Shown here piece by piece: positions 7,258-34,606 of a DNA stretch of 40,000 nt; positions within the stretch are counted from its first letter, which is position 1, and every line of letters begins with the position of its first letter. This DNA is from Clostridia bacterium (GTDB lineage Bacteria; Bacillota; Clostridia; Christensenellales; UBA1242), in contig JAZOTD010000036.1 of assembly GCA_045657465.1 (NCBI GenBank), forward strand, positions 11,372 through 51,371. Reading direction: 5' to 3'. Below the pieces are notes generated by a model. The model was not told the origin of the DNA, searched no databases, and saw nothing but the letters and a program-made list of their open reading frames with translations. The position numbers and the translations under genes were made by a program.

Positions 7258-7833
7258 TTAAAACATTAATCCTGCGTAATGTAATAAAATTGAAAATATA
7301 GCAAGCAAAAACAATCTAGATGGAACATTTCTAAACGCTGAGTTTATATATGATCTGTTCACTGATTCAGTAAAGAATCCAACAAGCACACTCACAACCA
7401 AAACAGAAACAACAATGGCAATAATTGACATTGCAAATTCTGCAATTGGCATGCTCATATCGATTGTAAAAATCACTGAAAACGTAAATGACGCATCCAT
7501 AACATATGAAAATGAACTTTCATATAAATAATGTTTGAATGTTGAGATTTTTGACCAAATATGATTAACCAAAAGATTATATGTGCCAACAAACACAACC
7601 GCAACGCTCGCACTTATATATTCTAAATTAAATGGTTTGTAAACATATGTGTTCAACACATATGTTGCAAAACAACATAGAATGATTCCCACAACTAAAA
7701 AGACTGATTCCAAAAGCCTAAATGACTTATACATTTTTTCTCTTTGGAACAAAACAGCACCGGTTCCGTTAGAAACAACAATATTGCTTTTCAAACCATA
7801 TAAAACCAAATACGATAATAAAATTTGCAACAT
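7258..7833 (-). CDS. rnfA: RnfA-like integral membrane subunit (Rnf-Nqr family), divergent
   Basis: 191 aa with about 6 TM segments. Its position between the rnfE-like gene and rnfB matches canonical gene order. The C-terminal NVPSRLFLLAIFSILLHYAGLMF resembles the RnfA/NqrE C-terminus. Its start overlaps the rnfE stop as TAATG. Confidence 0.55.
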   Translation of the reverse strand: MLQILLSYLVLYGLKSNIVVSNGTGAVLFQREKMYKSFRLLESVFLVVGIILCCFATYVLNTYVYKPFNLEYISASVAVVFVGTYNLLVNHIWSKISTFKHYLYESSFSYVMDASFTFSVIFTIDMSMPIAEFAMSIIAIVVSVLVVSVLVGFFTESVNRSYINSAFRNVPSRLFLLAIFSILLHYAGLMF

Positions 7834-8774
7834 TATTCATTATCCTCCTTTGGTTTTTTATTGAATACTTTTTCTACCTTTGCACCTTTAGCATTCTTTT
7901 TCTTCTTACCTTTCTTTGTCGCAGGTTCTTCAGGTTCAACTTCTTTAACTTCTTCTGCAGGTTTTTCGCTAGCAGTCATTTCTTCTGGCGGCTTGTCAGT
8001 GATTTCATTCATATCAACCACTTCGTTAGCACTTTCCTTTTCGTTGATTTCTTCAACTTTTTCACCATCAATCTTATTTGTTTCAATTTGATTTGCAAGA
8101 AGTCTTTGACGTCTTAAATTGTCATATTGGAAAACTTTTTCATTTCTAATCTTTTTCAATATCTTTTGATATTCAATTTGTTTTTTCGTAACTTTATTGG
8201 CAATAGCCTTATGAATAACCTCAGCAAGGAATGCAATAATACCCATCCATAACAAGTTAAACACTTGAGTTCTGCAGAATGCATGACCAGTAAATCCAAA
8301 CAATTGTCTTTCAAAAACTGTTCCATAAGCTAAAAATTCTTTAAACACACTATACACAAAGCCCATTAACGCAAACACAAACATAGCTCTCAAAACTTTA
8401 TACAAATAGTTTTTAGCAACCGCTTTTGTGTTGATATAAATGATATCAATACTCAAGATTGTTGTAGCAATAACTGACAAAAATCCTTCTTCGTGAACAT
8501 GCACATGAAGTCCAAAAAGTTCATATTTTTCAATAACAAAATCTAAAAGCGTCACAATAAACACTGACAATATTGCAGTCACAAACACTTTAACCGAACG
8601 ACTAAAGAATTTGTTAAACACCAAGCACACCAGTGCAGATATTAAATAACAAATACATGTAGCAATAATGAAATATATCGCATAGTTTGAATGAGCCATA
8701 ACAAACATTAGTGGACATAACGCCAAAATTGCGATATGCACAAAGCTCATTTCAATATTAGTTTTTAAATGCAT
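7833..8774 (-). CDS. rnfE: RnfE-like integral membrane subunit with a long charged C-terminal tail
   Basis: The N-terminus AILALCPLMFV matches the RnfE/NqrD G(L/I)CP motif, and about 6 TM segments follow. I place the start at the ATG at 8774 (track M4), because SD GGAGGTG (8781-8787) lies 6 nt upstream. Track residues 196-316 form a K/E-rich low-complexity tail. Confidence 0.6.
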   Translation of the reverse strand: MHLKTNIEMSFVHIAILALCPLMFVMAHSNYAIYFIIATCICYLISALVCLVFNKFFSRSVKVFVTAILSVFIVTLLDFVIEKYELFGLHVHVHEEGFLSVIATTILSIDIIYINTKAVAKNYLYKVLRAMFVFALMGFVYSVFKEFLAYGTVFERQLFGFTGHAFCRTQVFNLLWMGIIAFLAEVIHKAIANKVTKKQIEYQKILKKIRNEKVFQYDNLRRQRLLANQIETNKIDGEKVEEINEKESANEVVDMNEITDKPPEEMTASEKPAEEVKEVEPEEPATKKGKKKKNAKGAKVEKVFNKKPKEDNE

Positions 8775-9687
8775 TTCTAACACCTCCTAACGCCAAAGGC
8801 TTAAGAACTAAATATTTGTCCATTATAGGAACAAGCATATTCATAAACAAAGCAACTGCAAAGATTGAATTTTCTCCAAGCTTTCCAGTGCTCCAAACAA
8901 GTGCAGAAAGCACACCAAATAAAAGTGAATATAAAATCTTGCCAATAAACGTGTTTGGTGATGTGTTAGGATCAGTAATCATAAACACTGACACGAAAAT
9001 AAACGAACCTGAAAACATATTCATGACAGTTTCTTCAAGTCCACCAAGCATCATCCCAGTAACAAAATAACCAATCACTGCAAGTAGTGGAAGTTTAAAA
9101 TCAACCACACCTGAATAAACCAAGAATGCATAACAAATAACCAAGATAATCACACAAGTGGTTCCAATTCCACCAACACTCTCACCCACAAGCAAGTTTG
9201 TAAGTGTGTTAGTTCCACCAAGTGCAATCGATGTCATTTGTTCGCCATTAAGTGTGATTTGATAAAACTCAGAAGCAACCATGCTTGAAATAACACCAGT
9301 CATACATCTTCCCACAAGTGCAGGATTAAACTTGTTTCTTCCAAGCCCACCGAATGCCATCTTTGCAACAAATATTGAAACAAAAGCACTAATCATAACA
9401 AAATGCCAAGGAATTCCAATAGGCATCGTAAGTGCCAGAATAAAACCTGTTACAACACAAGAAAAATTATCAACATAAAATTTCTTTTTTGCGATAAGGT
9501 TAAACAATCCTTCAAAAACCAAGCAAGAAACAACCCCAACAGCAACAATTAACAATGCTTTAATTCCAAAAAATAACGTTCCATAAATTGCAGGCAACAA
9601 CAACGCCACTGCCACATACAAAAACATCTTATTTGTATCATTACCACTACGAACAAATGGAGCGTGTGAAACTACAAACTTTTCCAT
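8758..9687 (-). CDS. rnfD: RnfD-like subunit (NqrB/RnfD family)
   Basis: Motifs read: VSHAPF (compare SSPH), FGGLGRNKFNPALVGR, MITDPNTSP, FAVALFMNMLVPIMD. SD GGAGGTG lies 7 nt upstream. The start overlaps the rnfC stop as TAATG. Confidence 0.8.
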   Translation of the reverse strand: MEKFVVSHAPFVRSGNDTNKMFLYVAVALLLPAIYGTLFFGIKALLIVAVGVVSCLVFEGLFNLIAKKKFYVDNFSCVVTGFILALTMPIGIPWHFVMISAFVSIFVAKMAFGGLGRNKFNPALVGRCMTGVISSMVASEFYQITLNGEQMTSIALGGTNTLTNLLVGESVGGIGTTCVIILVICYAFLVYSGVVDFKLPLLAVIGYFVTGMMLGGLEETVMNMFSGSFIFVSVFMITDPNTSPNTFIGKILYSLLFGVLSALVWSTGKLGENSIFAVALFMNMLVPIMDKYLVLKPLALGGVRNAFKN

Positions 9688-11081: not shown

Positions 11082-11462
11082 TTATTGTTTTTTATTTTTC
11101 ATTGCAAGAATGGTTTTTATAGCATAAAAAATACCAACCAAAATAATGAAACTTGCAAACAAAATTCTAAGCAAATTTGAACTAGTTTTAAGCGCAAAAA
11201 GACTCGCAAAAAAAGCCACTATCGTGGCAGGAATTGAAATGCAAAAAAACGCCATGAAATCAATCAATTTATTTTTAATATAAATCACAAAACAAACACT
11301 CGCCAAAACAACAAAACAGATCACATTTGTTGACTGGCAAATAATCTGCTCAACTCCAAAAAACAAACTTAAAAGCGGAATCAAAAAAGTTCCACCACCC
11401 ATACCCATTCCAGCAAAAATTCCCGAAAATGTAGATATTAATAAAATTAGCAAAATCTGCAC
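11082..11462 (-). CDS. Half-size TSUP (TauE/SafE-like) membrane protein, second of a pair
   Basis: 126 aa with 4 TM segments and the motif GMGMGGGTFLIPLL. GTG start with AAGGAG 6 nt upstream. Confidence 0.7.
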   Translation of the reverse strand: MQILLILLISTFSGIFAGMGMGGGTFLIPLLSLFFGVEQIICQSTNVICFVVLASVCFVIYIKNKLIDFMAFFCISIPATIVAFFASLFALKTSSNLLRILFASFIILVGIFYAIKTILAMKNKKQ

Positions 11463-11483: not shown

Positions 11484-11529
11484 TTTTTATATTGTTTTTC
11501 AATGTTTTTTAATGCTTTTTGCGTTTTTT
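11484..11529 (-). other. Array of five helically phased A-tracts (T-tracts on the plus strand)
   Basis: T5-T6 runs at 11484-88, 11495-99, 11505-10, 11516-20 and 11524-29. Start spacings are 11, 10, 11 and 8 bp. The array fills the 65-nt gap between the two TSUP half genes. Confidence 0.6.
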
Positions 11530-11908
11530 AAAACACAATCATGCAAACGCCAGCCACAATTAACACCACTGAAAAGATTAAATCTATAACATTATTTTTT
11601 AATTTTTTCAATAATTTTGTTCCAACCAAGCTTCCAATTACACTCCCTATCCCACACACCAAAACAAGCTTAAAATCAACTTCATTTTTAATAAAATAAA
11701 ACACTGAACTTGACACACACATAAACAGCACACAAGCAAGTGTTGTGGCATGTGCAATCTTAGAATCTTGTTTTGAAACATAGCCAATCATGGGCACAAG
11801 CAAAAGCCCACCACCCGCTCCAAAAAAACCATTAATGAACCCAGCAACCAGTCCAACCGCCACTAGCTCCAAAATTTTTAATAATTCTTTCTTGTTTTTA
11901 TTATCCAC
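11528..11908 (-). CDS. Half-size TSUP (TauE/SafE-like) membrane protein, first of a pair
   Basis: 126 aa with 4 TM segments and the motif GFFGAGGGLLLVPMI. Confidence 0.7.
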   Translation of the reverse strand: MDNKNKKELLKILELVAVGLVAGFINGFFGAGGGLLLVPMIGYVSKQDSKIAHATTLACVLFMCVSSSVFYFIKNEVDFKLVLVCGIGSVIGSLVGTKLLKKLKNNVIDLIFSVVLIVAGVCMIVF

Positions 11909-12095
11909 ATAACTAGTATTCTTTTTTTGACCAGCAATTATAACAATATTTTATAATAGGCTTTTTAAAACCCCAAAATGCCCAATTTTTCTACATTTTT
12001 AAGACTAAAATTTTTGAGAAAAGGTTGATTTTTTTCAACAAATATAATAAAATTAATGTGGTTATTTTTAACAATAAAAATTAGGACGGTTTATA

Positions 12096-15000
12096 ATGAA
12101 GAAATTATCAAAATCATACAGCAAGAACAAAAAGTCAATACTAAGCGCATTCCTTGCATCAGTGTTGGCATTTTCATTTAACTACTCTCCAATTTCAATG
12201 ATTAGCAATCTTGTTAAGACTTCAAATGCTTACAAGTCTTCATCATTGCAATCTTATTATGGCGAAACAACTTCAACTTCTGAATCAAAAGTGAAAGCGT
12301 ATTACCCTGAAGAACTCGCAGAGTATTTTTCTCAAAGCAAAACAAATTTCAACATCGAAACTTATTACAATTCAAGATTCGATGACTTGTTCAAAGGTTA
12401 TGCAAATGACTTTTTGCTAAGCGGAAAAGTGCCTTTTGTTAATCCTGACGGTTCAGACAACCCTGATGCAATGACAAACTATTCAACTCTTGTTAGAAAC
12501 TTCTTGTCAAACAAAAAAGTTTCAACTCTTTATGAATACTTTGAAAACAACAAAACTGACATCAAGGCAGACCTAAACATTTCAGACTTTAGAACATATG
12601 TTGAATATTTCGTATCTCACGAAATCACTTGGACAATCTCTGATGCTGAAACAGGAAAAATCCCAGCAGCATTCACAACCGCCCCAACAAAAACTTATTT
12701 CTACTGTTCATTTGCAAACTTCTTAACCAACACACAAGAAAGTGTTAAATCAACAGATACAAATGGTTTTGACAACCTTCCAGAAGATTACACAGAATCA
12801 CAATTCTATCAATTCTCTCTTTCTTATAAAAGACTCAAAGATGCTGTTGATGCTGAAATCGTTAAAACAATGGCAATCTATTCATATGATGGTCAAACAC
12901 AAAGCAACACCGTTGCAGGCATCGTGGCTGAAGGTGCTCCTGTTTCAAAAGAGTTCTATTATAAAGATAATGAATACACTCCACAAAACACACCAAAAGT
13001 TTCTTATTCACAAAAAACCGTTAACAAAGTAAAAAATAGAATTGTATATTACTTTGGAACTCTTCCAACATTGCCAAGCGGATACACTAGACCAGATCAT
13101 CTTGAAGAATTAGACATAAACAAATTTTATGAAAACCCTCTTCAATATAGATTAACCCTTGACGACGGCTTAGACGACAATGAAGAATATGGTTACATTC
13201 CTGGGATCAACACATTCTATAAATATGAATCAATTCCATTTGCAACCACAAAAAATCAATATGACTTATATGTCGTTGATGACTCTGTTACAGATTTAGA
13301 AAAAACAACTTATGCATCACTTGGCATCACAGTGTTAACTTCTGACGACATCGACAACGACACACAAAACGCTGAAGACCTTCAAGACCTTGGGATTAGC
13401 AAAGCTGATTCAAAATCTTACTTCAAGGTTCCTTATGATTCAACTGCTGAACATGGTGACATCTATTTCAACCAAATCTTCAGTTTCATTGCTTCATCTG
13501 CAACTAAAAACAAAGTTTACAAAATTTTAGAAGAATTGCAAAAAATTGATGCAATACATGGTCTTTATTTAAAATATAAAAACAATGCTGATAATATCGT
13601 TTATTATGACCCTGCTTTAAATGGTGGCAAATCAAAAGAAACTTTCATTGCTGACGCAAAGAAAGAAGAAAACGGCATCTATGACCATTTGGTTATTGAA
13701 TTTGATTACAATAGTTTGTCTGCTGAAGAAAAAGAAAGCTATTGCATCATTCCAACTTCATTCTCTGGTCACAACGTTGGTAGTTACACTCTCTATTTTG
13801 AAAAGACAAAAACTTTCTATCAAGAAACTAACACAACAAACTATGATGGTTACGTAACAAAAGACACACCTGTTGACCCATATGAATATTCATCTCACCT
13901 GATTCCAACAGATTCTTACAAAATGGCTGACTATGGCAAAGAAATTTTTGCTCTAGTTGAAAATAAAGACACAACTGCCAAAGTTACAATTGACTCAACT
14001 GAATATTTTACCGTTGATCAATTTGAACTTGATAAACCTGAAAATAGAAATTTCTATATTGAAGTTCCTGAATACACCTACAACAAAATTTATGGTGCAA
14101 ACAACAGAACCTACAAACTCTATTTCAAACATGAAGCAAAAGCAACAAGACAACTCTATGTTGTTGATGACACTAAATCTGCTTCAACAAACGAGGTTTA
14201 CAAAAATTTATATTACAACGTTATCACTTCTGAAGAATTGAAGCTTAACAAACTCAATTATGTTGCCGTTGAATCAACTGATGCAAACTACAACAAAAAC
14301 TTTAAGCTTTATTATAGATATGATGAAGACACAAAATTTTCTGAACTCTTTGTTCAAAATGAATTTAGAAACACCGGCAGTGACGATAATTCAAAACACA
14401 ACGCCAACGCTGTTTACATTGTCGATGAAGATGTTAAGCCTGATGAACTTGCAAAATATAAAGTAAATTTGTTTAATGTTGTTTCAACAGAAGAATTCAA
14501 CCAAAACAAACACTTCTATGTTTTAATTCAACAAGGTGACGAAAACTATAACTCACAATACACAAAGCTTTATTACAAATATAAAACAGACACAACAAAA
14601 GCTAGTGAAAAAGTTATCTATATCTACACTTCTGGAAAGAGCGACAAATATCAAACTTTCTACAAAAACAACGCTGGTTATGTTGCTTCTGATTATGAGC
14701 TCATTCCATCAACAGACACTGAAAACTATGTTGAAGGTACAAACCTTTATTATAAAAAGAAAAGAGTTCAATCAGCAGTTAATAAGCCACAAATGACTTA
14801 TTATTATTATCAAAACTCTTCAACCGTTTCACTCAAGGCAAACAAATATTATGCTATTTCATTCTATGTTTACACAAACGGTTATTATGATGAAGCAAAG
14901 ACAATGCCTATTGAAGCATCATTCTATTTGTCAGATTCAAATGGCTACGTGTCAAACATTTCCCTTGAACACATCTCATCTCAAGGCAAATGGACAAAAT

Positions 15001-18000
15001 ATTATATGTTCGTTTCAACAGATCTCAACTCTGCTTCTGCTGTTTCACTTAAGATGTATCTTGGTGACAAAACAAGCATCTTGGGTTCTAGATATGAAGA
15101 CAACAAAGACACAATCAAAACTGTTAGTGGCGTTGTTCTCTTTGATAACATTAGAGTTACAACAATTAACTACACAGACTTCACAAAACGCAGAGTTGAT
15201 GACAAAGACATCACCGTTGAAAAATATTTAGAAGAATCTGATTCTCCTGTTGTTCTTGACGTTGTTGTTGCAAACGATGATGCAAGATTCAACACAACAA
15301 ACGTGTTTGACAACAGAGCCAACTCAACTCTTGTTATTGGAGACAATGACAATTCAACAACTTGGGACGAAGGCAAAGATTTTGATGACATGTTCAACTT
15401 TGACGATATCTATAACACAAACAAAGATTCAAACGTGTTCACAGATATTCCTGATGTAACCGAAAAAACTGATGGCTACTCACCAAAAACTACAATGTGG
15501 TCATATTATATTGGCCGTGATGTTTCTGGTCTTGGCAACAGCAGAAAACTTGAACAATATCAAGAAGCCTATATGTCAGGCAACCTTTCAGTAAGTCTCG
15601 TTGATGAAGAAACAGAAATCAGCAAAACAATCACTCCTGTTGACAAAGACGAAGATAAGAAAGAAGAAGATAAAAAAGAAGAAGACAAAACTGAAAACAA
15701 AGAAACAATTGCTTCAACATTTAATCTAGCAAACCGTGCATTGAAACTTGAAAACACAAACAGTATTATTTCTCTTGGCATCACATCAAACGCATTTAAG
15801 ATTGAACAATTTAGATATTACAAAATTACAGTTTGGGTGTTTGCTCCAGACAAAGAAGCAACTGCTTCAATCACACTTAACTCTGTGGTTGAAACCGCAT
15901 CAACTCCAACTTATGGAACTCTTTTAACAAAGACAATTTCTCTTGATGCATGCTATGCTTCATACACAACAGCTCCAACAAACGAATATGGTTGGATTCC
16001 TTGTTCATTCTATATTGAAGGAAATGCACTTCATGACCAACTTTGCTATTTGGTTCTTTCAGCTGGAAAAGACTCAACTGTTTACTTCGACAATATCTCT
16101 GTTGAAAATGTTTCATCATCTGCTTATGACACAGTAAGTTCAGATTCAGACAACACAACAAATTACTTGTCACTCACCAACTCATCATCAGTTATTTCTA
16201 ATGGTATCACAAATGGTTACTTTAACAACATCACTTTCAAAAATGATTACAAAGAACCAGACATGACAACACCTAGAACTGCAAAGAGCTGGACTGTTGA
16301 CTCAAATAGTTCAAGTGCTGTGGTTGCAGGAGTTGTTCCAACAAACAAAACCTACACTTCGCTCACTGACAACTTCTATAAAAAATATAACAAAGATGGC
16401 GACGACGTAATCATTCCATATTCAAATGGATTTGATGAAAACAATTCATACAACAACGTGTTTGCAATTTATGCCCCTTCAACAATGAACAACCCTATTG
16501 AAGGCTCAACACAAACTGGCGTAAACACAACTAATATGTATAAGCTTTATTCTTCTTCAATTAGCTTGTCTGCAAACGGCGTTTATGAAATTTCATTTGA
16601 TTTCTTCAAAGGATATAACTTCACTGGATCAATGATTGCAAACCTTTATTATGGTTCAAAAGATTCAGCAAAAATTATTTCATCATTTAAAATTGATGCA
16701 AACAACCTTGATGAATATGCTTGGGAAACCTTCAAATTCTATGTTGCTTCGTCATACTCAACCGCAAGTGTATATCTTGAAATTGGTGTAACTGGTGCAA
16801 CTGGAACATGTTTCTTTAAAGATGCTCTCAAGGTAACATCTTCAAAATTACTCACCGATTTGCGTGACGAAATTATCAATGTAAATGAAAACTTGTCAGG
16901 CACAGCTGATATGTTTAACAAACAATCTCTTCAAAACTATAGATTTGTAGACTTTGCAATGTTATCATCATCAACTCACAGCCTTGAATTCAATAAACAA
17001 AACAACACATACAACGTTTCTGAATACAAGAACGAACTCATTAACACCAACAAATACACCGTTGGAAAATCTGGAGTTGCTGTTGCAACATTCTTCGCTG
17101 AGGAAGATTCAACAGTTACATATTCAGTAACAATCAACAAAATAACATATTATATTGGTGAAGATGCAAGTTCTGACACAGGCTATTCACTCTACAAATA
17201 TTCTTGCTGCTGTGAAGATGACAAAGTAACTGAAATCGACGGCTCACCTGTTGTAGTTGAAAACACCAAAAAAGTTGTTGTTGGAAAAGATGACAAAACA
17301 ACTGATTATGCATCAACCAAAACAGAAAAGAAAAACTATCTCTACACTTTTGAAAAAGATGTTGAAATCAATAATGTAATGATTCCAGCTACTGAACTTA
17401 CAAACAACTATTCAGATAGTGTCATGATTTTAGCTAACAGCTATTCAACAGATTTCATTTCACTCACACCTGCTTACACAACAACATTAAGCAAGACATC
17501 ATTCTATGTGTTGAAAATATATGTAAAAACAAGTGACTTTGCAGATGAAGACACTGGATTGAACATCAATATTGCTTCAATCTCAACTTCTTGGAAAAAC
17601 ATCAACACAACAATTCTTGATGAAGGAAAGGCTGATGAAAATGGATTCGTTTGCTATCAAGTAGGTATTAAAACAGCTGACAGTTCAATAGCAAGTTTTG
17701 GTGTAACCCTTTCTCTTGGTTCTGAAAAATCAACATGCAAAGGCTATGCAATCATTGCAGACATCGAACTTGAAAAATATGCAACTGAAGCAGACCTTGA
17801 ACACTACATCTCAACAGTTGAAGACGATGAAATCACCGTTAAAAAATATTACTCAAATGCAAAAGATGGTTCTTCTTCAAACACTTCAAATGAAAAGAAA
17901 GAAGACGCTGAAGAAGTTTCAAGATGGGCAACCTTCTTCTATATCTTCTCTTCACTTCTTTTAGCTTTGGTTCTTGGCATGGCACTTGTTGCTGTATTTG

Positions 18001-18149
18001 TTAAAAAACACCCTGTTAAACACAGAGTAAAAGCAACAAACGACCACGAAAAAGATATTGAACTTCTTAGACCTAAGAAATCAGACATCTTTGAACCAAC
18101 AAGCAAATCTTCAAATGAAGAAGATTCTGGAAACGATGGCATTTTGTAA
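12096..18149 (+). CDS. Giant (2017 aa) secreted, C-terminally membrane-anchored surface protein with CBM-like modules
   Basis: Uninterrupted 6 kb ORF. The N-terminal signal-like segment is KKSILSAFLASVLAFSF...SNA. Tyr/Asn/Thr-rich repeats and four beta-sandwich-like modules follow. The C-terminal TM helix WATFFYIFSSLLLALVLGMALVAVFV is followed by a basic/acidic tail. No LPXTG motif. Confidence 0.85.
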   Translation: MKKLSKSYSKNKKSILSAFLASVLAFSFNYSPISMISNLVKTSNAYKSSSLQSYYGETTSTSESKVKAYYPEELAEYFSQSKTNFNIETYYNSRFDDLFKGYANDFLLSGKVPFVNPDGSDNPDAMTNYSTLVRNFLSNKKVSTLYEYFENNKTDIKADLNISDFRTYVEYFVSHEITWTISDAETGKIPAAFTTAPTKTYFYCSFANFLTNTQESVKSTDTNGFDNLPEDYTESQFYQFSLSYKRLKDAVDAEIVKTMAIYSYDGQTQSNTVAGIVAEGAPVSKEFYYKDNEYTPQNTPKVSYSQKTVNKVKNRIVYYFGTLPTLPSGYTRPDHLEELDINKFYENPLQYRLTLDDGLDDNEEYGYIPGINTFYKYESIPFATTKNQYDLYVVDDSVTDLEKTTYASLGITVLTSDDIDNDTQNAEDLQDLGISKADSKSYFKVPYDSTAEHGDIYFNQIFSFIASSATKNKVYKILEELQKIDAIHGLYLKYKNNADNIVYYDPALNGGKSKETFIADAKKEENGIYDHLVIEFDYNSLSAEEKESYCIIPTSFSGHNVGSYTLYFEKTKTFYQETNTTNYDGYVTKDTPVDPYEYSSHLIPTDSYKMADYGKEIFALVENKDTTAKVTIDSTEYFTVDQFELDKPENRNFYIEVPEYTYNKIYGANNRTYKLYFKHEAKATRQLYVVDDTKSASTNEVYKNLYYNVITSEELKLNKLNYVAVESTDANYNKNFKLYYRYDEDTKFSELFVQNEFRNTGSDDNSKHNANAVYIVDEDVKPDELAKYKVNLFNVVSTEEFNQNKHFYVLIQQGDENYNSQYTKLYYKYKTDTTKASEKVIYIYTSGKSDKYQTFYKNNAGYVASDYELIPSTDTENYVEGTNLYYKKKRVQSAVNKPQMTYYYYQNSSTVSLKANKYYAISFYVYTNGYYDEAKTMPIEASFYLSDSNGYVSNISLEHISSQGKWTKYYMFVSTDLNSASAVSLKMYLGDKTSILGSRYEDNKDTIKTVSGVVLFDNIRVTTINYTDFTKRRVDDKDITVEKYLEESDSPVVLDVVVANDDARFNTTNVFDNRANSTLVIGDNDNSTTWDEGKDFDDMFNFDDIYNTNKDSNVFTDIPDVTEKTDGYSPKTTMWSYYIGRDVSGLGNSRKLEQYQEAYMSGNLSVSLVDEETEISKTITPVDKDEDKKEEDKKEEDKTENKETIASTFNLANRALKLENTNSIISLGITSNAFKIEQFRYYKITVWVFAPDKEATASITLNSVVETASTPTYGTLLTKTISLDACYASYTTAPTNEYGWIPCSFYIEGNALHDQLCYLVLSAGKDSTVYFDNISVENVSSSAYDTVSSDSDNTTNYLSLTNSSSVISNGITNGYFNNITFKNDYKEPDMTTPRTAKSWTVDSNSSSAVVAGVVPTNKTYTSLTDNFYKKYNKDGDDVIIPYSNGFDENNSYNNVFAIYAPSTMNNPIEGSTQTGVNTTNMYKLYSSSISLSANGVYEISFDFFKGYNFTGSMIANLYYGSKDSAKIISSFKIDANNLDEYAWETFKFYVASSYSTASVYLEIGVTGATGTCFFKDALKVTSSKLLTDLRDEIINVNENLSGTADMFNKQSLQNYRFVDFAMLSSSTHSLEFNKQNNTYNVSEYKNELINTNKYTVGKSGVAVATFFAEEDSTVTYSVTINKITYYIGEDASSDTGYSLYKYSCCCEDDKVTEIDGSPVVVENTKKVVVGKDDKTTDYASTKTEKKNYLYTFEKDVEINNVMIPATELTNNYSDSVMILANSYSTDFISLTPAYTTTLSKTSFYVLKIYVKTSDFADEDTGLNINIASISTSWKNINTTILDEGKADENGFVCYQVGIKTADSSIASFGVTLSLGSEKSTCKGYAIIADIELEKYATEADLEHYISTVEDDEITVKKYYSNAKDGSSSNTSNEKKEDAEEVSRWATFFYIFSSLLLALVLGMALVAVFVKKHPVKHRVKATNDHEKDIELLRPKKSDIFEPTSKSSNEEDSGNDGIL
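13257..14762 (+). repeat. At least six degenerate tandem protein repeats (about 50-85 aa each) inside the giant CDS
   Basis: Units start near aa 388, 497, 615, 685, 770 and 838. Each ends in (Y/N)(K/T)LY(Y/F)(K/R/E). The best pair is aa 687-745 against aa 773-833: LYVVDD..Y..L.YNVITSEEL..NK..YV....D.NYN...KLYYRY versus VYIVDE..Y..L.FNVVSTEEF..NK..YV....D.NYN...KLYYKY. Confidence 0.7.
14808..15167 (+). other. CBM4_9-like beta-sandwich module 1 (aa 905-1024)
   Basis: Pattern read: SLKANKYYAISFYVYT ... ASFYLSD ... WTKYYMFVST..ASAVSLKMYLG ... VLFDNIRV. Confidence 0.5.
15642..15704 (+). repeat. Low-complexity D/E/K linker (DKDEDKKEEDKKEEDKTENKE)
   Basis: Read directly; purine-rich GAA/GAT/AAA codon run. 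Confidence 0.8.
15759..16112 (+). other. CBM4_9-like module 2 (aa 1222-1339)
   Basis: Pattern read: FKIEQFRYYKITVWVFA ... ASITLNS ... WIPCSFYIEG ... CYLVLSAGKDSTVYFDNISV. Confidence 0.5.
16188..16838 (+). other. CBM4_9-like module 3 (aa 1365-1581)
   Basis: Begins SNGITNGYFNN...AKSWTV, comparable to the NGgFE...W module start. Continues ISLSANGVYEISFDFF ... WETFKFYVAS..ASVYLEIGV.GATGTCFFKDALKV. Confidence 0.5.
17430..17774 (+). other. CBM4_9-like module 4 (aa 1779-1893)
   Basis: Pattern read: TTTLSKTSFYVLKIYVKT ... GLNINIAS ... FVCYQVGIKT..IASFGVTLSLG...GYAIIADIEL. Confidence 0.45.
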
Positions 18150-18163
18150 TAACTACAAAAAAC

Positions 18164-18192
18164 AAAAAGAGAGACACTTGTCTCTCTTTTTT
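18164..18192 (+). terminator. Terminator of the giant gene
   Basis: AGAGAGACA (18168-18176) pairs with TGTCTCTCT (18179-18187), followed by a T-run. Confidence 0.6.
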
Positions 18193-18203
18193 ATTCTCAA
18201 AAA

Positions 18204-18232
18204 AAGACGAGATTATTTCTCGTCTTTTGCTT
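18204..18232 (-). terminator. Terminator of the 18213-19391 gene, overlapping its last codons and stop
   Basis: AAGACGAGA (18204-18212) pairs with TCTCGTCTT (18218-18226). On the minus strand a T7 run follows. Confidence 0.55.
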
Positions 18233-19391
18233 TTTTAGTTTTATTTTTTTCTGGTTTTGCATCTTCTGTTAATTTTTTGATATAACATGTTTTCTTTCTA
18301 ATAAGTTCTCTTTCAAACATTTCAAGAGAGCTGATAGCTCCTGTGTTTGTCTCTAACTGAACACCAGTTACACCAGTTTTAACGTTTGGCATTTGACACA
18401 CTCTATCAAAAAGCTTTTTGATGATAAATGCAGTAACTCCCAACTTTTGATATTCTTTTCTTACTGAAATGATTCCAAGTTCAATTTCTTCAGGTTTTCT
18501 AAGTGCTTTGAGCCAATGAATAAACCCAAATGGAAGTGCTCTTCCTTTAGATTTTCTCATTGCTTCTGCAAGTGATGGCCATGTTAAACCAAAACCAATA
18601 AGTTTGTCTTTTTTATCAAAAACCAAGCAAAGATATTTCTTTTTCAAAATAAGCTTAAACATTGATATAACTTGTTTTCTAAGTTCATCATTCATAGGCA
18701 TTGTGCCATAAAGTTCAGCAAATGACTCGTCCATCAAATCAAAGAAGTCGTCACCATGTTTTTTGATAAGCCCATTAAGAGTTTTGAACTCTTCCTCATG
18801 AAAACCATAGCGATTTTCAACAATATTTGCTATTCTGTCAACACGTGCATCCATCTTTTGTGGAAAATTAAATCTCCATTCAACCCATTTTGCATCTGGT
18901 GTGTAGCCACAGTTTTCAATATAAGTTTGATAATATGGATAGTTGTAGCTTGTGATATATGAACCACGGTGTTCAAAACCATAAACCATCAAACCTTCTC
19001 TTTCTAAATCATCATAACCAAGTGGACCATGAATATATTCCATACCATGTTCTCTTGCCCAGTCTTCAGCTGTTTGAAGCAATGCTTTTGCAACTTCTTC
19101 ATTTTCAATCACATCAAATCTTGAAAATCTAGCATACTTTGCATTATTTTTCTCATTGAATGGGTGCATTATAATACATGCAATTCTTCCAACAACTTTT
19201 CCATTCTCATCTTCTGCTAAGAAAAATGCTTGTTCACACTCTTTGTAGTGTGCATTTTTCTTGGTAACCATTTTATATTCATCCATTTCCATTGGTGGAA
19301 TATAATTTTTGCAATCTTTATAGAGATTGGTTGGAAATCTCACGAATCTTTTTAAATCTTTTCTTTTTGTAATTTTTCTAATAGTAAACAT
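18213..19391 (-). CDS. Putative GNAT-superfamily (tandem acyltransferase fold) protein, function unknown
   Basis: 392 aa with SD AGGAGA 5 nt upstream. The segments GKVVGRIACI...ARFSRFDV...AKALLQTAEDWAREHGMEYIHGPLG and ISVRKEYQKLGVTAFIIKKL look like GNAT beta4-alpha3 regions. This is a by-eye call only. Confidence 0.4.
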   Translation of the reverse strand: MFTIRKITKRKDLKRFVRFPTNLYKDCKNYIPPMEMDEYKMVTKKNAHYKECEQAFFLAEDENGKVVGRIACIIMHPFNEKNNAKYARFSRFDVIENEEVAKALLQTAEDWAREHGMEYIHGPLGYDDLEREGLMVYGFEHRGSYITSYNYPYYQTYIENCGYTPDAKWVEWRFNFPQKMDARVDRIANIVENRYGFHEEEFKTLNGLIKKHGDDFFDLMDESFAELYGTMPMNDELRKQVISMFKLILKKKYLCLVFDKKDKLIGFGLTWPSLAEAMRKSKGRALPFGFIHWLKALRKPEEIELGIISVRKEYQKLGVTAFIIKKLFDRVCQMPNVKTGVTGVQLETNTGAISSLEMFERELIRKKTCYIKKLTEDAKPEKNKTKKAKDEK

Positions 19392-32949: not shown

Positions 32950-33198
32950 ATAAATTGCGTTGAAAAAGAAGAGTAAACTTGAAGGTTGCTTATAGAGAGT
33001 TCCGCTTGGTGGAAAGGAACAGCAAACGCAAATCGAAGGCACTTTGGAGCAATCATTAAAAAAGAGTGAGTGTCACATGACACTAATAAGGGTGGAACCA
33101 CGGGTCTAATCTCTCGCCCCTTAGCAAAACTGAATAAATCACATATGTTTTATTCCCTTTTGCTATCGCGTGCGAAAAAGATTAGGCCTTTTGTTTTG
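32950..33198 (+). promoter_or_regulatory. Glycine-specific T-box riboswitch leader (short glyQS type, no Stem II)
   Basis: Stem I starts TTGCGTTGAAAAAGAAGAGTA (32955-). AGAGAG box at 32994-32999. Distal GGTGGAAAGG. Specifier GAA-GGC-A with GGC at 33038-33040. Stem III is GTGTCAcaTGACAC. T-box core AATAAGGGTGGAACCACGG lies at 33085-33103, with UGGA in the bulge. Long terminator helix CTAATCT/TCGC (33106-33117) pairs with GCGA/AGATTAG (33172-33185), followed by CTTTTGTTTT. Confidence 0.85.
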
Positions 33199-33232
33199 GC
33201 TAAAAAACAAAATAAATTTAGGAGAAACAAAT

Positions 33233-34606
33233 ATGAAAAACTTAACAATGGACAAACTTGTAAGTCATTGCAAAAACACAGGTATTGTCTATCCAGGTTC
33301 TGACATTTATGACGGACTTGCAAACACTTGGGATTATGGTCCTGTTGGTGTCGAACTCAAAAACAACATCAAAAAAGTTTGGTGGAAACGTTTCGTTCAA
33401 GAAGCTGACAACAGTTATGGCGTTGACGCAGCAATATTGATGAACCCTAGAGTTTGGGAGGCTTCTGGACACGTTGCATCATTCACCGACCCAAAAATGG
33501 ATTGCAAACGTTGCAAAACAAGAATGAGAGCCGACAATCTTATCGAAGCTCACTCAAAAGGCTCAGTAAATGCTGACGCTATGACAAATGAAGAAATGGA
33601 AGCATATATTCAAGAACATCAAGTTAAATGCCCTACTTGCGGAAACTTTGATTGGACACCAATCCGCCAATTCCACCTTATGTTCCAAACATCAAGAGAC
33701 CTTACTGGCGGAAAAGATGATGTTATCTATCTTCGTCCAGAAACTGCTCAAGGTGAATTCGTAAACTTCATGAACGTTCAAAGAACAACCCGTGCAAAAG
33801 TTCCTTTCGGAATTGGACAAATCGGAAAAGCATTTAGAAACGAAATCACTCCAGGAAACTTTACTTTTAGAACAATCGAGTTTGAACAAATGGAACACCA
33901 ATTGTTCTGCAAAAACGAAGAAGCCGGTTTTGATTTCTATGCAAAATACAAAAAAGATGCATATGATTTCCTTATCGACCTTGGATTCAACAAAGACGAC
34001 TTAAACTACAAAGACCACGAAAAGCTTGCATTCTATGCAAAAGCAGCTTGTGACATCATCTTCAAATATCCATTCGGTTGGAATGAACTTAATGGTATTC
34101 ACTACAGAACCGACTATGATTTGGGCAGACATCAAGAATATTCAGGCAAAAACATGCTCTATATCGACCCAGTAACTAATGAAAAATATGTTCCACATGT
34201 TGTAGAATATTCAATTGGTGCTGACAGACTCACCCTTGCAGTTCTTTGTGAATTCTATGATGAAGAAGAACTTGAAGGTGGCGACACAAGAGTTGTATAT
34301 CGTTTCCACCCTGCTATCGCTCCATATAAAGTTGCAGTGCTTCCACTTCAAAAGAACATGAGTGAAAAAGCAAGAGAAATCTACAAAAAACTTGCAAAAC
34401 ACTTTATGTGCACATATGACGAAGCTGGCTCTATCGGAAAGAGATATCGTCGCCAAGACCAAATCGGCACTCCATTCTGTGTAACAATCGACTTTGACAC
34501 ACTCGAAGACGGAACAGTTACCATTCGTGAAAGAGACACAATGCAACAACGCAGAATTTCTGTTGATGAACTCATCTCTTATGTAAACGAAAAAATCGTT
34601 TTCTAA
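33233..34606 (+). CDS. glyQS: Glycine--tRNA ligase (alpha2 GlyQS type)
   Basis: MKNLTMDKLVSHCKNTGIVYPGSDIYDGLANTWDYGPVGVELKNN... and class II motifs. The start at 33233 has AGGAG 8 nt upstream. The track's 33170 start lies inside the T-box terminator. Confidence 0.95.
   Translation: MKNLTMDKLVSHCKNTGIVYPGSDIYDGLANTWDYGPVGVELKNNIKKVWWKRFVQEADNSYGVDAAILMNPRVWEASGHVASFTDPKMDCKRCKTRMRADNLIEAHSKGSVNADAMTNEEMEAYIQEHQVKCPTCGNFDWTPIRQFHLMFQTSRDLTGGKDDVIYLRPETAQGEFVNFMNVQRTTRAKVPFGIGQIGKAFRNEITPGNFTFRTIEFEQMEHQLFCKNEEAGFDFYAKYKKDAYDFLIDLGFNKDDLNYKDHEKLAFYAKAACDIIFKYPFGWNELNGIHYRTDYDLGRHQEYSGKNMLYIDPVTNEKYVPHVVEYSIGADRLTLAVLCEFYDEEELEGGDTRVVYRFHPAIAPYKVAVLPLQKNMSEKAREIYKKLAKHFMCTYDEAGSIGKRYRRQDQIGTPFCVTIDFDTLEDGTVTIRERDTMQQRRISVDELISYVNEKIVF

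Follow-up and report, generated by a model that had tools for sequence, protein, structure and literature searches.

Surface proteins that are held in the Firmicute membrane by a C-terminal hydrophobic tail form a class exemplified by Listeria ActA, in which a signal peptide, a single C-terminal transmembrane (TM) helix and a short basic stop-transfer sequence occur together without a sortase motif. The same combination is found in a protein of 2017 amino acids (aa), below called the giant protein, whose gene lies at positions 12096-18149 of the DNA analysed here, a stretch of 40,000 nucleotides (nt) from the Clostridia bacterium assembly GCA_045657465.1 (contig JAZOTD010000036.1, positions 11,372 to 51,371; the window, from whose first letter all coordinates are counted). 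The anchor of the ActA-type class is a generic hydrophobic one, whereas that of the giant protein is a near-invariant TM helix followed by a tail with a conserved end (35-120 aa in the family), and there is no sequence relationship between the two. The protein belongs to a previously unannotated family, whose full-length orthologues (31-92% identical) occupy the same chromosomal locus in at least 21 species and whose TM helix, C-terminal peptide, N-terminal domain and repeat unit are without a described counterpart. Its general kind, a multi-domain bacterial surface protein with modules resembling carbohydrate-binding modules (CBMs) and with a hydrophobic-tail anchor, is already known.

Several described systems share parts of this architecture. 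With the CenC-type CBMs (CBM_4_9, PF02018; CAZy families CBM4, CBM9, CBM16 and CBM22) the giant protein has in common a beta-jelly roll (Foldseek probability 1.0, target-normalised TM-score 0.45-0.60) and a strand pattern, N-G-x-F...W, Y-Y-x-I-S-F-x-V, G-x-W-x-x-Y and x-F-D-N-I, but its modules stay below the gathering score and occur, without an attached glycoside hydrolase, in a membrane-anchored non-enzymatic protein. The best single-domain structural and profile matches are the accessory jelly rolls of the glycoside hydrolase family 101 (GH101) endo-alpha-N-acetylgalactosaminidases EngBF and SpGH101 and the CBM70 of pneumococcal hyaluronate lyase (4d0q, target-normalised TM-score 0.66 and profile E 0.01; 5a55, profile E 0.047, a sequence similarity that is not significant). 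These are likewise surface proteins of gut or mucosal Firmicutes or Actinobacteria, but they are LPXTG-anchored enzymes, while the giant protein has no catalytic domain. The RsgI-type anti-sigma-I sensors of Clostridium thermocellum are single-pass proteins with an extracellular CBM-like module, as is the giant protein (the profile match to RsgI3 is weak, E 0.083), and the analogy extends to a relative described below, in which part of the ectodomain is joined to a cytoplasmic helix-turn-helix (HTH) domain. RsgI is oriented N-in, however, and the giant protein has the opposite topology, no anti-sigma or other cytoplasmic domain and no sigI-like gene nearby. Finally, the C-terminal extension of Cry1 protoxins (domains V and VII) contains serial CBM-like beta-rolls alternating with helical segments and gives the best Foldseek E-values; the global TM-score is nonetheless about 0.1, and the giant protein is membrane-anchored, is not a crystal protein and lacks the three-domain toxin core.

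Topology and domain architecture

Hydropathy analysis revealed only two hydrophobic segments in the 2017 residues, at aa ~15-33 and ~1941-1975. The first belongs to a signal peptide (aa 1-45; 12096-12230, on the + strand like all parts of the gene given below), in which a lysine-rich n-region precedes the hydrophobic core ILSAFLASVLAFSF. A likely signal-peptidase I site, SNA/YKSS, follows it, and small residues at positions -3 and -1 followed by YK or YE are conserved in giant and short-form homologues alike, examples of this small-x-Ala plus Tyr type of site being SNA/YKSS, TSA/YK, TFA/EYE and AKA/YE; judging from this conservation, the precursor would be cleaved by signal peptidase I after A45. 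The second segment is the TM helix (aa 1942-1970, continuing into 1975; 17919-18005), whose hydrophobic helix aa 1944-1969 reads WATFFYIFSSLLLALVLGMALVAVFV and which in the family takes the form of a near-invariant WATFFYIFSSLLL...ALVA and then a basic KKHP(I/V)K. Acidic residues precede the helix and KKHPIK comes after it (KKHPVKHRVK in the window protein), so that a signal peptide, a single C-terminal TM helix and positive residues behind it are all present, as expected of a hydrophobic-tail anchor. The remaining cytoplasmic tail (aa 1971-2017; 18006-18146) is disordered, with a predicted local distance difference test (pLDDT) score below 50, and variable in length and sequence. Neither an LPXTG-like motif ([LN]Px[TSA][GNSA]) anywhere in the protein nor a Pfam Gram_pos_anchor match was found, and SLH, choline-binding, CWB2, LysM and GW wall-binding repeats had no Pfam or NCBIfam match at E<=1. 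The giant protein is very probably a type I (N-out, C-in) anchored surface protein with CBM-like jelly rolls. The initial annotation of this DNA had already read a signal-like N-terminus, type I TM anchoring and the absence of LPXTG, SLH, choline-binding and wall-binding repeats from the sequence, and hydropathy, the predicted helix, the motif scan and Pfam bear it out on each of these.

The anchor is the best conserved part of the protein. Column conservation is highest in the TM segment (0.79), followed by the second and fourth of the modules described below (0.70-0.71), most other domains (about 0.5-0.6) and the tail (0.44). The motif W-A-T-F-F-[YL]-[IV]-F-S-S-[LI]-L-L...A-L-V-A...[KR][KR]-[HL]-P is carried by 66 proteins (1006-2232 aa), in which 35-120 variable residues, with much K, E, S and T, make up the tail behind it; in most of these proteins the tail ends in an acidic residue and G-[FI]-[VIL]-COOH, for instance DDGFV, DEGFV or GGII, and that of the window protein ends in NDGIL (aa 2013-2017; 18132-18146). 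The helix contains helix-destabilising S-S and G residues, and in its outer half conservation is contiguous on all faces, which suggests a specific intramembrane contact or recognition. A short conserved peptide at the end of a variable, disordered linker likewise has what looks, at the level of sequence, like the organisation of a docking motif. Both features lend real support to the proposed coupling of the tail to a component of the cell interior, the TM helix being the best-conserved segment and the C-terminus keeping its acidic-G-[FI]-[VIL] pattern. An exosortase-, archaeosortase- or rhombosortase-type signal (PEP-CTERM, PGF-CTERM, GlyGly-CTERM) was considered and rejected in its standard form, because WATFFYIFSS, the TM helix and the basic cluster are followed by 35-120 residues with a second conserved motif.

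The ectodomain was modelled with AlphaFold2 from a family alignment of 28 sequences (pLDDT 80.6 for aa 1-1030 and 74.2 for aa 890-2017), and segment borders were set by DSSP secondary structure and the pLDDT of both models. Behind the signal peptide come an N-terminal mixed alpha/beta domain (aa 46-340; 12231-13115; pLDDT mostly 80-90) and a Tyr-rich region of degenerate, ~64-aa alpha/beta repeats (aa 341-890; 13116-14765). Module 1 (M1; aa 904-1024; 14805-15167) is a CenC/CBM4_9-like beta-jelly roll by DSSP, Foldseek and a sub-threshold CBM_4_9 match, and is followed by a mixed alpha/beta domain, U1 (aa 1042-1175; 15219-15620), that has invariant W1135, Y1138 and R1141 and is conserved in short-form orthologues too. 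An acidic linker (aa 1177-1204; 15624-15707; pLDDT below 50), with the acidic stretch DKDEDKKEEDKKEEDKTENKE at aa 1183-1203, has the lowest column conservation of all segments (0.40). It leads to module 2 (M2; aa 1214-1339; 15735-16112), a CBM-like beta-jelly roll whose conservation of 0.71 is among the best of the ectodomain, and to module 3 (M3; aa 1355-1582; 16158-16841), a CBM-like jelly roll with an N-terminal extension and the motif NGYFN...P..W...V.GV. An all-beta domain, U2 (aa 1615-1763; 16938-17384; pLDDT 85-92), separates these from the membrane-proximal CBM-like jelly roll, module 4 (M4; aa 1775-1895; 17418-17780; conservation 0.70). The coordinates first read for the linker (1183-1203), the CCC triplet (1704-1706), the helix (1944-1969) and the 48-aa charged tail were all exact. 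Two segments then left unassigned, aa 1025-1180 and 1582-1778, do exist, and both prove to be folded domains, the alpha/beta U1 and the all-beta U2; the CCC triplet, which lies within U2, is correctly placed but is not conserved among homologues.

The evidence that the modules are CBM-like comes from structure and from weak but recurrent sequence similarity. Beta-jelly rolls of the galactose-binding-domain-like fold are present in the AlphaFold2 models and match CBM4-2, CBM16, CBM22, CBM6 and CBM70 with Foldseek probability 1.0. Searched against the Protein Data Bank (PDB), the C-terminal half gave matches of probability ~1.0 to a CBM22 tandem, CBM16, CBM70, GH101 accessory domains and SGBP-B, and also to MAM domains, malectin-like ectodomains, reelin repeats and Cry1 protoxin beta-rolls, with single-domain target-normalised TM-scores of up to 0.54-0.66. 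The N-terminal half matched only CBM4-2, CBM16, CBM6, CBM22, CBM61, Stig cyclases and CenC-like fibre domains of phages. M1 matches Pfam CBM_4_9 at E 0.0022 (18.8 bits, short of the gathering cut-off of 25.9), and among 68 modules taken from 17 species 14 match this family at E<=1 (best 1.7e-4), while other families recur in two modules at most. A profile of the pooled modules finds in the PDB, as its best matches, the hyaluronan-binding CBM70 (E 0.01) and GH101 (E 0.047), then alginate lyase and RsgI3. Profile-profile comparison by hhalign relates M1 to M3 (6e-6), M4 (5e-4) and M2 (7e-3). The full protein matched nothing at E<=1 in Pfam, NCBIfam or PDB sequences, and queries with the N-terminal part and the core found nothing significant there. 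The four modules can accordingly be described, as far as models and profiles go, as CenC/CBM4-9-22-like beta-jelly rolls by fold and sequence pattern, short of formal family membership; that they bind carbohydrate is plausible from the fold and the sub-threshold CBM_4_9 similarity. The four CBM-like beta-sandwiches that the initial annotation had seen are therefore recovered by AlphaFold2, by Foldseek and by recurrent weak CBM_4_9 matches. The profile and per-segment structure searches it had proposed yielded, respectively, a CBM_4_9 signal that recurs below threshold and jelly rolls of the CBM22/galactose-binding-like fold, and the protein falls outside any characterised adhesin family.

Tyrosine makes up 8.4% of the whole protein and 11.3% of the repeat region, compared with 1.5-6.6% in 14 other proteins of the window. 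Two clear copies of a ~64-aa repeat, aa 683-746 and 769-833, are related at 1e-8 by BLASTP and found at 8e-24 and 4e-23 with a hidden Markov model (HMM); a third copy (aa 387-432; 2e-6) and weaker ones bring the number of degenerate Tyr-rich repeats to 4-6 overall, and hhalign finds self-matches of 1e-10 to 1e-15 over aa ~311-910. The Tyr-rich repeats proposed for aa 388-889 are hence real but degenerate: a BLAST search of the whole protein against itself showed none, and segmental BLAST and profile methods were needed to detect them. The N-terminal 850 aa have no match in Pfam or PDB sequences or by Foldseek (PDB, BFVD) at E<=1e-3, and all Foldseek matches listed for the N-terminal half have the size of M1, with alignments mostly of 130-170 columns.

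Homologues and relatives with other architectures

A search of 5.8 billion proteins retrieved 27 full-length homologues (1941-2074 aa; 38-92% identical), none with a Pfam domain, the sole name among them being 'hypothetical protein [Clostridia bacterium]'; invariant columns are distributed over the whole length of their alignment. A scan of one genome per species found 21 loci, all in metagenome-assembled genomes of uncultured Clostridia that live in the gut or rumen (hosts: human, ruminant, deer and mouse), with forms of up to 2290 aa at some of them. Gene order is identical at the 21 loci, which answers the question of distribution and synteny raised by the initial annotation. Between loci the giant protein is 31-47% identical, as against 65-91% for its neighbours (76-91% for UvrA, UvrB and Ppx), the pattern expected for an exposed envelope protein. 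These comparisons indicate vertical inheritance of a gene that evolves fast inside a rather narrow lineage and is, to the extent covered by the scan, present in a single copy.

An exhaustive HMM search of 1.84 billion representatives with a profile of aa 46-1040 gave 166 proteins, of which about 24 are full-length giants (1771-2232 aa) and the rest mostly proteins of 1,000-1,700 aa that match only M1, usually with several stretches. Four short forms of 1054-1181 aa (P0057, P0062, P0064 and P0065) consist of a signal peptide, M1-U1-M2-M3-U2-M4, the same TM helix and a C-terminal ...DGFV, and align to aa 890-1945 of the giant protein; sister lineages have orthologues of 1,000-1,400 aa whose body corresponds entirely to the part of the giant protein that starts at aa ~890 and includes its C-terminus. 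Because short forms at the same locus comprise only M1-U1-M2-M3-U2-M4, the TM helix and the tail, the giant form is to be seen as an ancestral core (aa ~890-1940) to which a lineage-specific, membrane-distal N-terminal extension of ~850 aa has been added. Identity to the closest non-trivial homologues is 53% in the N-terminal half versus 65% in the C-terminal half, which indicates, on alignment data, a faster evolution of the extension than of the core. The window protein has all the marks of the family: the M1-U1-M2-M3-U2-M4 core, the FF-x-[IV]-FSS motif in the TM helix, the G-[FI]-[VIL] C-terminus and a place beside a pair of TauE genes and the rnf genes.

The wider superfamily comprises at least 113 representatives of 50%-identity clusters, all of at least 900 aa. 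Of these 113, 100 possess a C-terminal TM helix and 21 additionally an N-terminal lipobox; membrane anchoring at the C-terminus thus typifies the family and is no peculiarity of the window gene. Where members carry an organism name it is 'Christensenellales bacterium' or 'Candidatus Stercoripulliclostridium', and all are annotated as hypothetical. A search seeded with P0057 gave four proteins, a metagenome scan gave one short locus, and a literature search returned nothing relevant to the giant protein or its relatives.

A sister subfamily (P0058-P0061, P0067, P0072, P0079 and others; 1,200-1,700 aa) has many CBM-like modules and lacks both the TM motif and the G-[FI]-[VIL] end. Many of its members combine an N-terminal lipobox with a C-terminal TM helix, and so both ends of these proteins would be tethered to the membrane. 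Acidic-aromatic peptides (DEFKD, YDDLSD, FDEFND) close many of the tails and constitute a conserved C-terminal motif of another kind. At the two loci of this subfamily that were examined there is no adjoining TauE pair, yet the genes still lie near Rnf or a MOP flippase. The gene of P0061 (1646 aa; L028:8001-14301) immediately precedes rnfC, 22 nt away and in the same orientation, which suggests that it is co-transcribed with the rnf operon in that lineage.

Another relative, P0028 (1018 aa; L024:1639-4695), was encountered on just one contig of 5 kb. It carries an XRE-type HTH at its N-terminus, crosses the membrane once and continues outside with segments of the Cadherin-like and Flg_new types. 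The rest of its extracellular region is homologous to aa 340-1040 of the giant protein, that is, the repeats and M1 (BLASTP 7e-29, 33% identity; profile E 7e-63). An alignment-based word-index search returned P0028 alone and missed the family itself, candidate saturation being the probable cause. The repeat-plus-M1 unit thus appears, from this homology, to be a portable extracytoplasmic module that is able to couple to a cytoplasmic HTH, and P0028 could be a membrane-bound regulator or a RodZ-like protein.

Gene, expression signals and neighbourhood

The open reading frame of the giant protein (12096-18149, + strand; 27 full-length homologues, 21 genomic loci) starts with ATG, is uninterrupted and, at 2017 codons in DNA of 33% GC, is far longer than expected by chance. 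It is the longest of the window, as the initial annotation had recognised when it also gave the gene its own terminator and placed it divergently from a TSUP pair, two observations that likewise stand. A sigma-70-type promoter found by consensus scan (12025-12053, + strand; -35 TTGATT, 17-nt spacer, -10 TAAAAT) lies in a block, GGTTGATTTTT...TAAAAT, that is conserved upstream of the gene in 12 aligned giant-form loci and recurs 5' of short-form orthologues. A non-canonical Shine-Dalgarno-like element, AGGACGG (12083-12089, + strand), precedes the ATG of the window gene by 6 nt, the range for the conserved element being 6-9 nt. An inserted C distinguishes it from GGAGGU; most species have TGGGACGGT in its place, and the element is kept in all 12 aligned giant-form upstream regions, in which the rest of the 5' untranslated region varies; AGGACGG is unique within the window, where other genes have GGAGG-type sites, and short-form orthologues use canonical sites. 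The element may be one of translational control.

Downstream, a GC-rich palindrome flanked by A- and T-runs (18164-18191) is the terminator hairpin of the large gene. It lies in the 63-nt gap before a convergent GNAT gene, back to back with another hairpin (18202-18228), and the pair (18164-18228) probably represents terminators, one per direction. The GNAT-family protein (392 aa; 18213-19391, - strand) has roughly double the usual length, and each half gives a weak acetyltransferase match; wherever a giant-form locus includes this flank the protein is present at 71-79% identity, and short-form loci lack it at this position.

At all giant loci, as far as the contigs extend, the order is MreB, two unknown genes, Ppx, RnfB/A/E-G/D/C, TauE, TauE and then, divergently, the giant gene, beyond which follow GNAT, a SpoVB-like flippase, DUF4363, DUF421, Big_3, UvrA and UvrB. 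At short-form loci Ppx, Rnf, TauE and TauE lie on one side, with the gene divergent from them and a SpoVB-like flippase often downstream. The two TauE/TSUP genes of the window (11082-11462 and 11528-11908, - strand) encode half-size proteins of 126 aa with about four TM helices each, both of which match only the C-terminal half of the Pfam TauE model, and so make up a split transporter that presumably functions as a heterodimer. Wherever a locus includes the upstream flank (among the 21 giant-form loci, and in five of five short-form loci), the pair separates rnfC from the large gene, next to which it lies in divergent orientation; it was not found next to genes of the sister subfamily, relatives without the TM and tail cassette, at the two loci examined; this correlation of cassette and TauE pair is suggestive, and it is confounded by phylogeny. 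A role in sporulation, to which the SpoVB-like, DUF421/YetF and DUF4363 neighbours might point, is not supported, the promoter being sigma-70-like and conserved and the synteny spanning unrelated housekeeping genes.

Two further observations concern other genes of the window. In the rnf cluster (7258-8783, - strand) a 316-aa open reading frame behind rnfD has an Rnf-Nqr (RnfE-like) match confined to its first 170 residues, no FMN_bind (RnfG) match was reported, and a 191-aa open reading frame in the position of rnfA has no Pfam match at E<=0.001; the 316-aa product may be an E-G fusion or a divergent G. A T-box leader (32951-33124; 104.9 bits) lies upstream of a gene (33170-34606) for a 478-aa class II aminoacyl-tRNA synthetase with an HGTP_anticodon domain.

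Possible functions of the giant protein

The reading we favour, and hold about as probable as all others together, is that of a glycan-binding surface tether, anchored in the membrane, probably spanning the wall and docked to a conserved partner. The Sec pathway would export the protein, and after cleavage behind A45 it would sit in the membrane with its N-terminus out and its C-terminus in, in gut Clostridia resembling Christensenellales. The conserved core of four jelly rolls, two further domains and the acidic linker would then lie within or span the wall, and the wall-spanning tether would present the faster-evolving Tyr-rich extension, as a variable N-terminal head, at the surface. The jelly rolls would bind carbohydrate polymers, and because they are membrane-proximal these polymers might just as well belong to the cell's own wall as come from the diet or the host. 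The TM helix and the tail peptide, at either end of the disordered cytoplasmic linker, would dock to a conserved membrane or cytoplasmic partner, either for positioning or for coupling from outside to inside. Several observations weigh against this. No module reaches the Pfam gathering threshold, the PDB sequence matches are not significant, and the alignments behind the models are shallow (the 28 sequences named above), the models being read for domain folds. Jelly rolls also mediate protein-protein recognition, as in MAM domains, Cry toxins and phage fibres, so that glycan binding is not implied by the fold, and there is no carbohydrate-active enzyme (CAZyme), sugar transporter or glycan-synthesis cluster near the gene. 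A coupling to a glycan flippase is weakened by the SpoVB/MurJ-like nature of the adjacent MOP protein, and the lipoboxes in many members of the sister subfamily leave room for N-terminal retention of the giant protein as well. Of the 'glycan-binding adhesin or sensor' first proposed for this gene, the CBM-like fold and the conserved tail uphold the general idea, but 'adhesin' is an uneasy name for the product of a single-copy gene that has a fixed locus in every member of the lineage, a near-constant length and no CAZyme or sugar-transport neighbours.

These same properties would suit a structural component of the envelope, an abundant and constitutive S-layer or wall-organising protein in which the jelly rolls serve as building blocks or spacers. 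The gene is single-copy at a fixed locus in 21 of 21 species, with short forms at the same locus in sister lineages; the first 27 homologues keep within 1941-2074 aa, without the variation in repeat number typical of adhesins; the promoter is conserved and of a housekeeping type; a CAZyme context is missing; and the C-terminal TM anchor is common to the superfamily (100 of 113 representatives). We nevertheless consider such a role unlikely, if a serious contender, as S-layer proteins of Firmicutes are normally anchored by SLH or CWB2, neither of which is present, and as some loci have longer forms of up to 2290 aa. The weak CBM_4_9 signal also points to ligand binding instead, and a ligand-binding role is favoured by the reuse of the repeat-plus-M1 unit in the HTH-TM protein P0028. 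That reuse, in which a related cassette is the ectodomain of a single-pass XRE-HTH protein, would also suit an outside-in sensor or receptor that passes a ligand signal through the TM helix to a partner recruited by the C-terminal peptide, or whose tail is freed by intramembrane proteolysis. The TM helix is the most conserved segment, on all faces of its outer half and with S-S and G residues, a short conserved peptide ends the variable disordered linker, and Foldseek matches include eukaryotic type I receptors with jelly-roll ectodomains (MAM phosphatases and malectin-like ANXUR kinases). The tail, however, contains no signalling domain recognisable by Pfam or NCBIfam, none of the conserved adjoining genes encodes a kinase, a sigma or anti-sigma factor or a regulator, and an ectodomain of 1,900 aa far exceeds those of known bacterial sensors, so that we regard a sensor as improbable.

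A Cry-protoxin-like or other toxin or secreted effector is scarcely credible. The best E-values of the C-terminal half in Foldseek are to full-length Cry1Aa, Cry1Ca, Cry1Ac and Cry8Ba (2e-11 to 9e-10), and a weak match to iota-toxin Ib was also seen. At a TM-score of ~0.1 and a root-mean-square deviation above 26 A over more than 800 columns, these matches reflect serial CBM-like beta-rolls such as those of protoxin domains V and VII; Pfam shows no endotoxin N, M or C domain and no pore-forming domain, the protein is membrane-anchored, and its gene is chromosomal in a housekeeping context. Kinship with Cry protoxins was rejected on the TM-score and the missing toxin core.

The tether that we favour can be given a more specific and decidedly speculative form, which we think doubtful. 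The TM helix and C-terminal peptide may constitute a dedicated docking or sorting cassette that links the wall-spanning, CBM-like ectodomain with a conserved machine, in the membrane or the cytoplasm, peculiar to these Christensenellales-like bacteria, with the split TauE/TSUP pair as a candidate partner. If true, the cassette would be a previously unknown system of envelope-to-cytoplasm coupling.

The giant protein does not represent a new principle. It stands for a superfamily of large envelope proteins that has so far escaped annotation, occurs in uncultured Christensenellales-related Clostridia of gut and rumen, still lacks a Pfam model and shows no above-threshold Pfam match in any scanned member. 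What sets the family apart is the pairing of CBM-like modules with an unusually conserved anchor and tail peptide, and the peptide motif can be used to fish for a partner. This protein could explain how these health-associated gut bacteria attach to particles, to partners or to their own wall.

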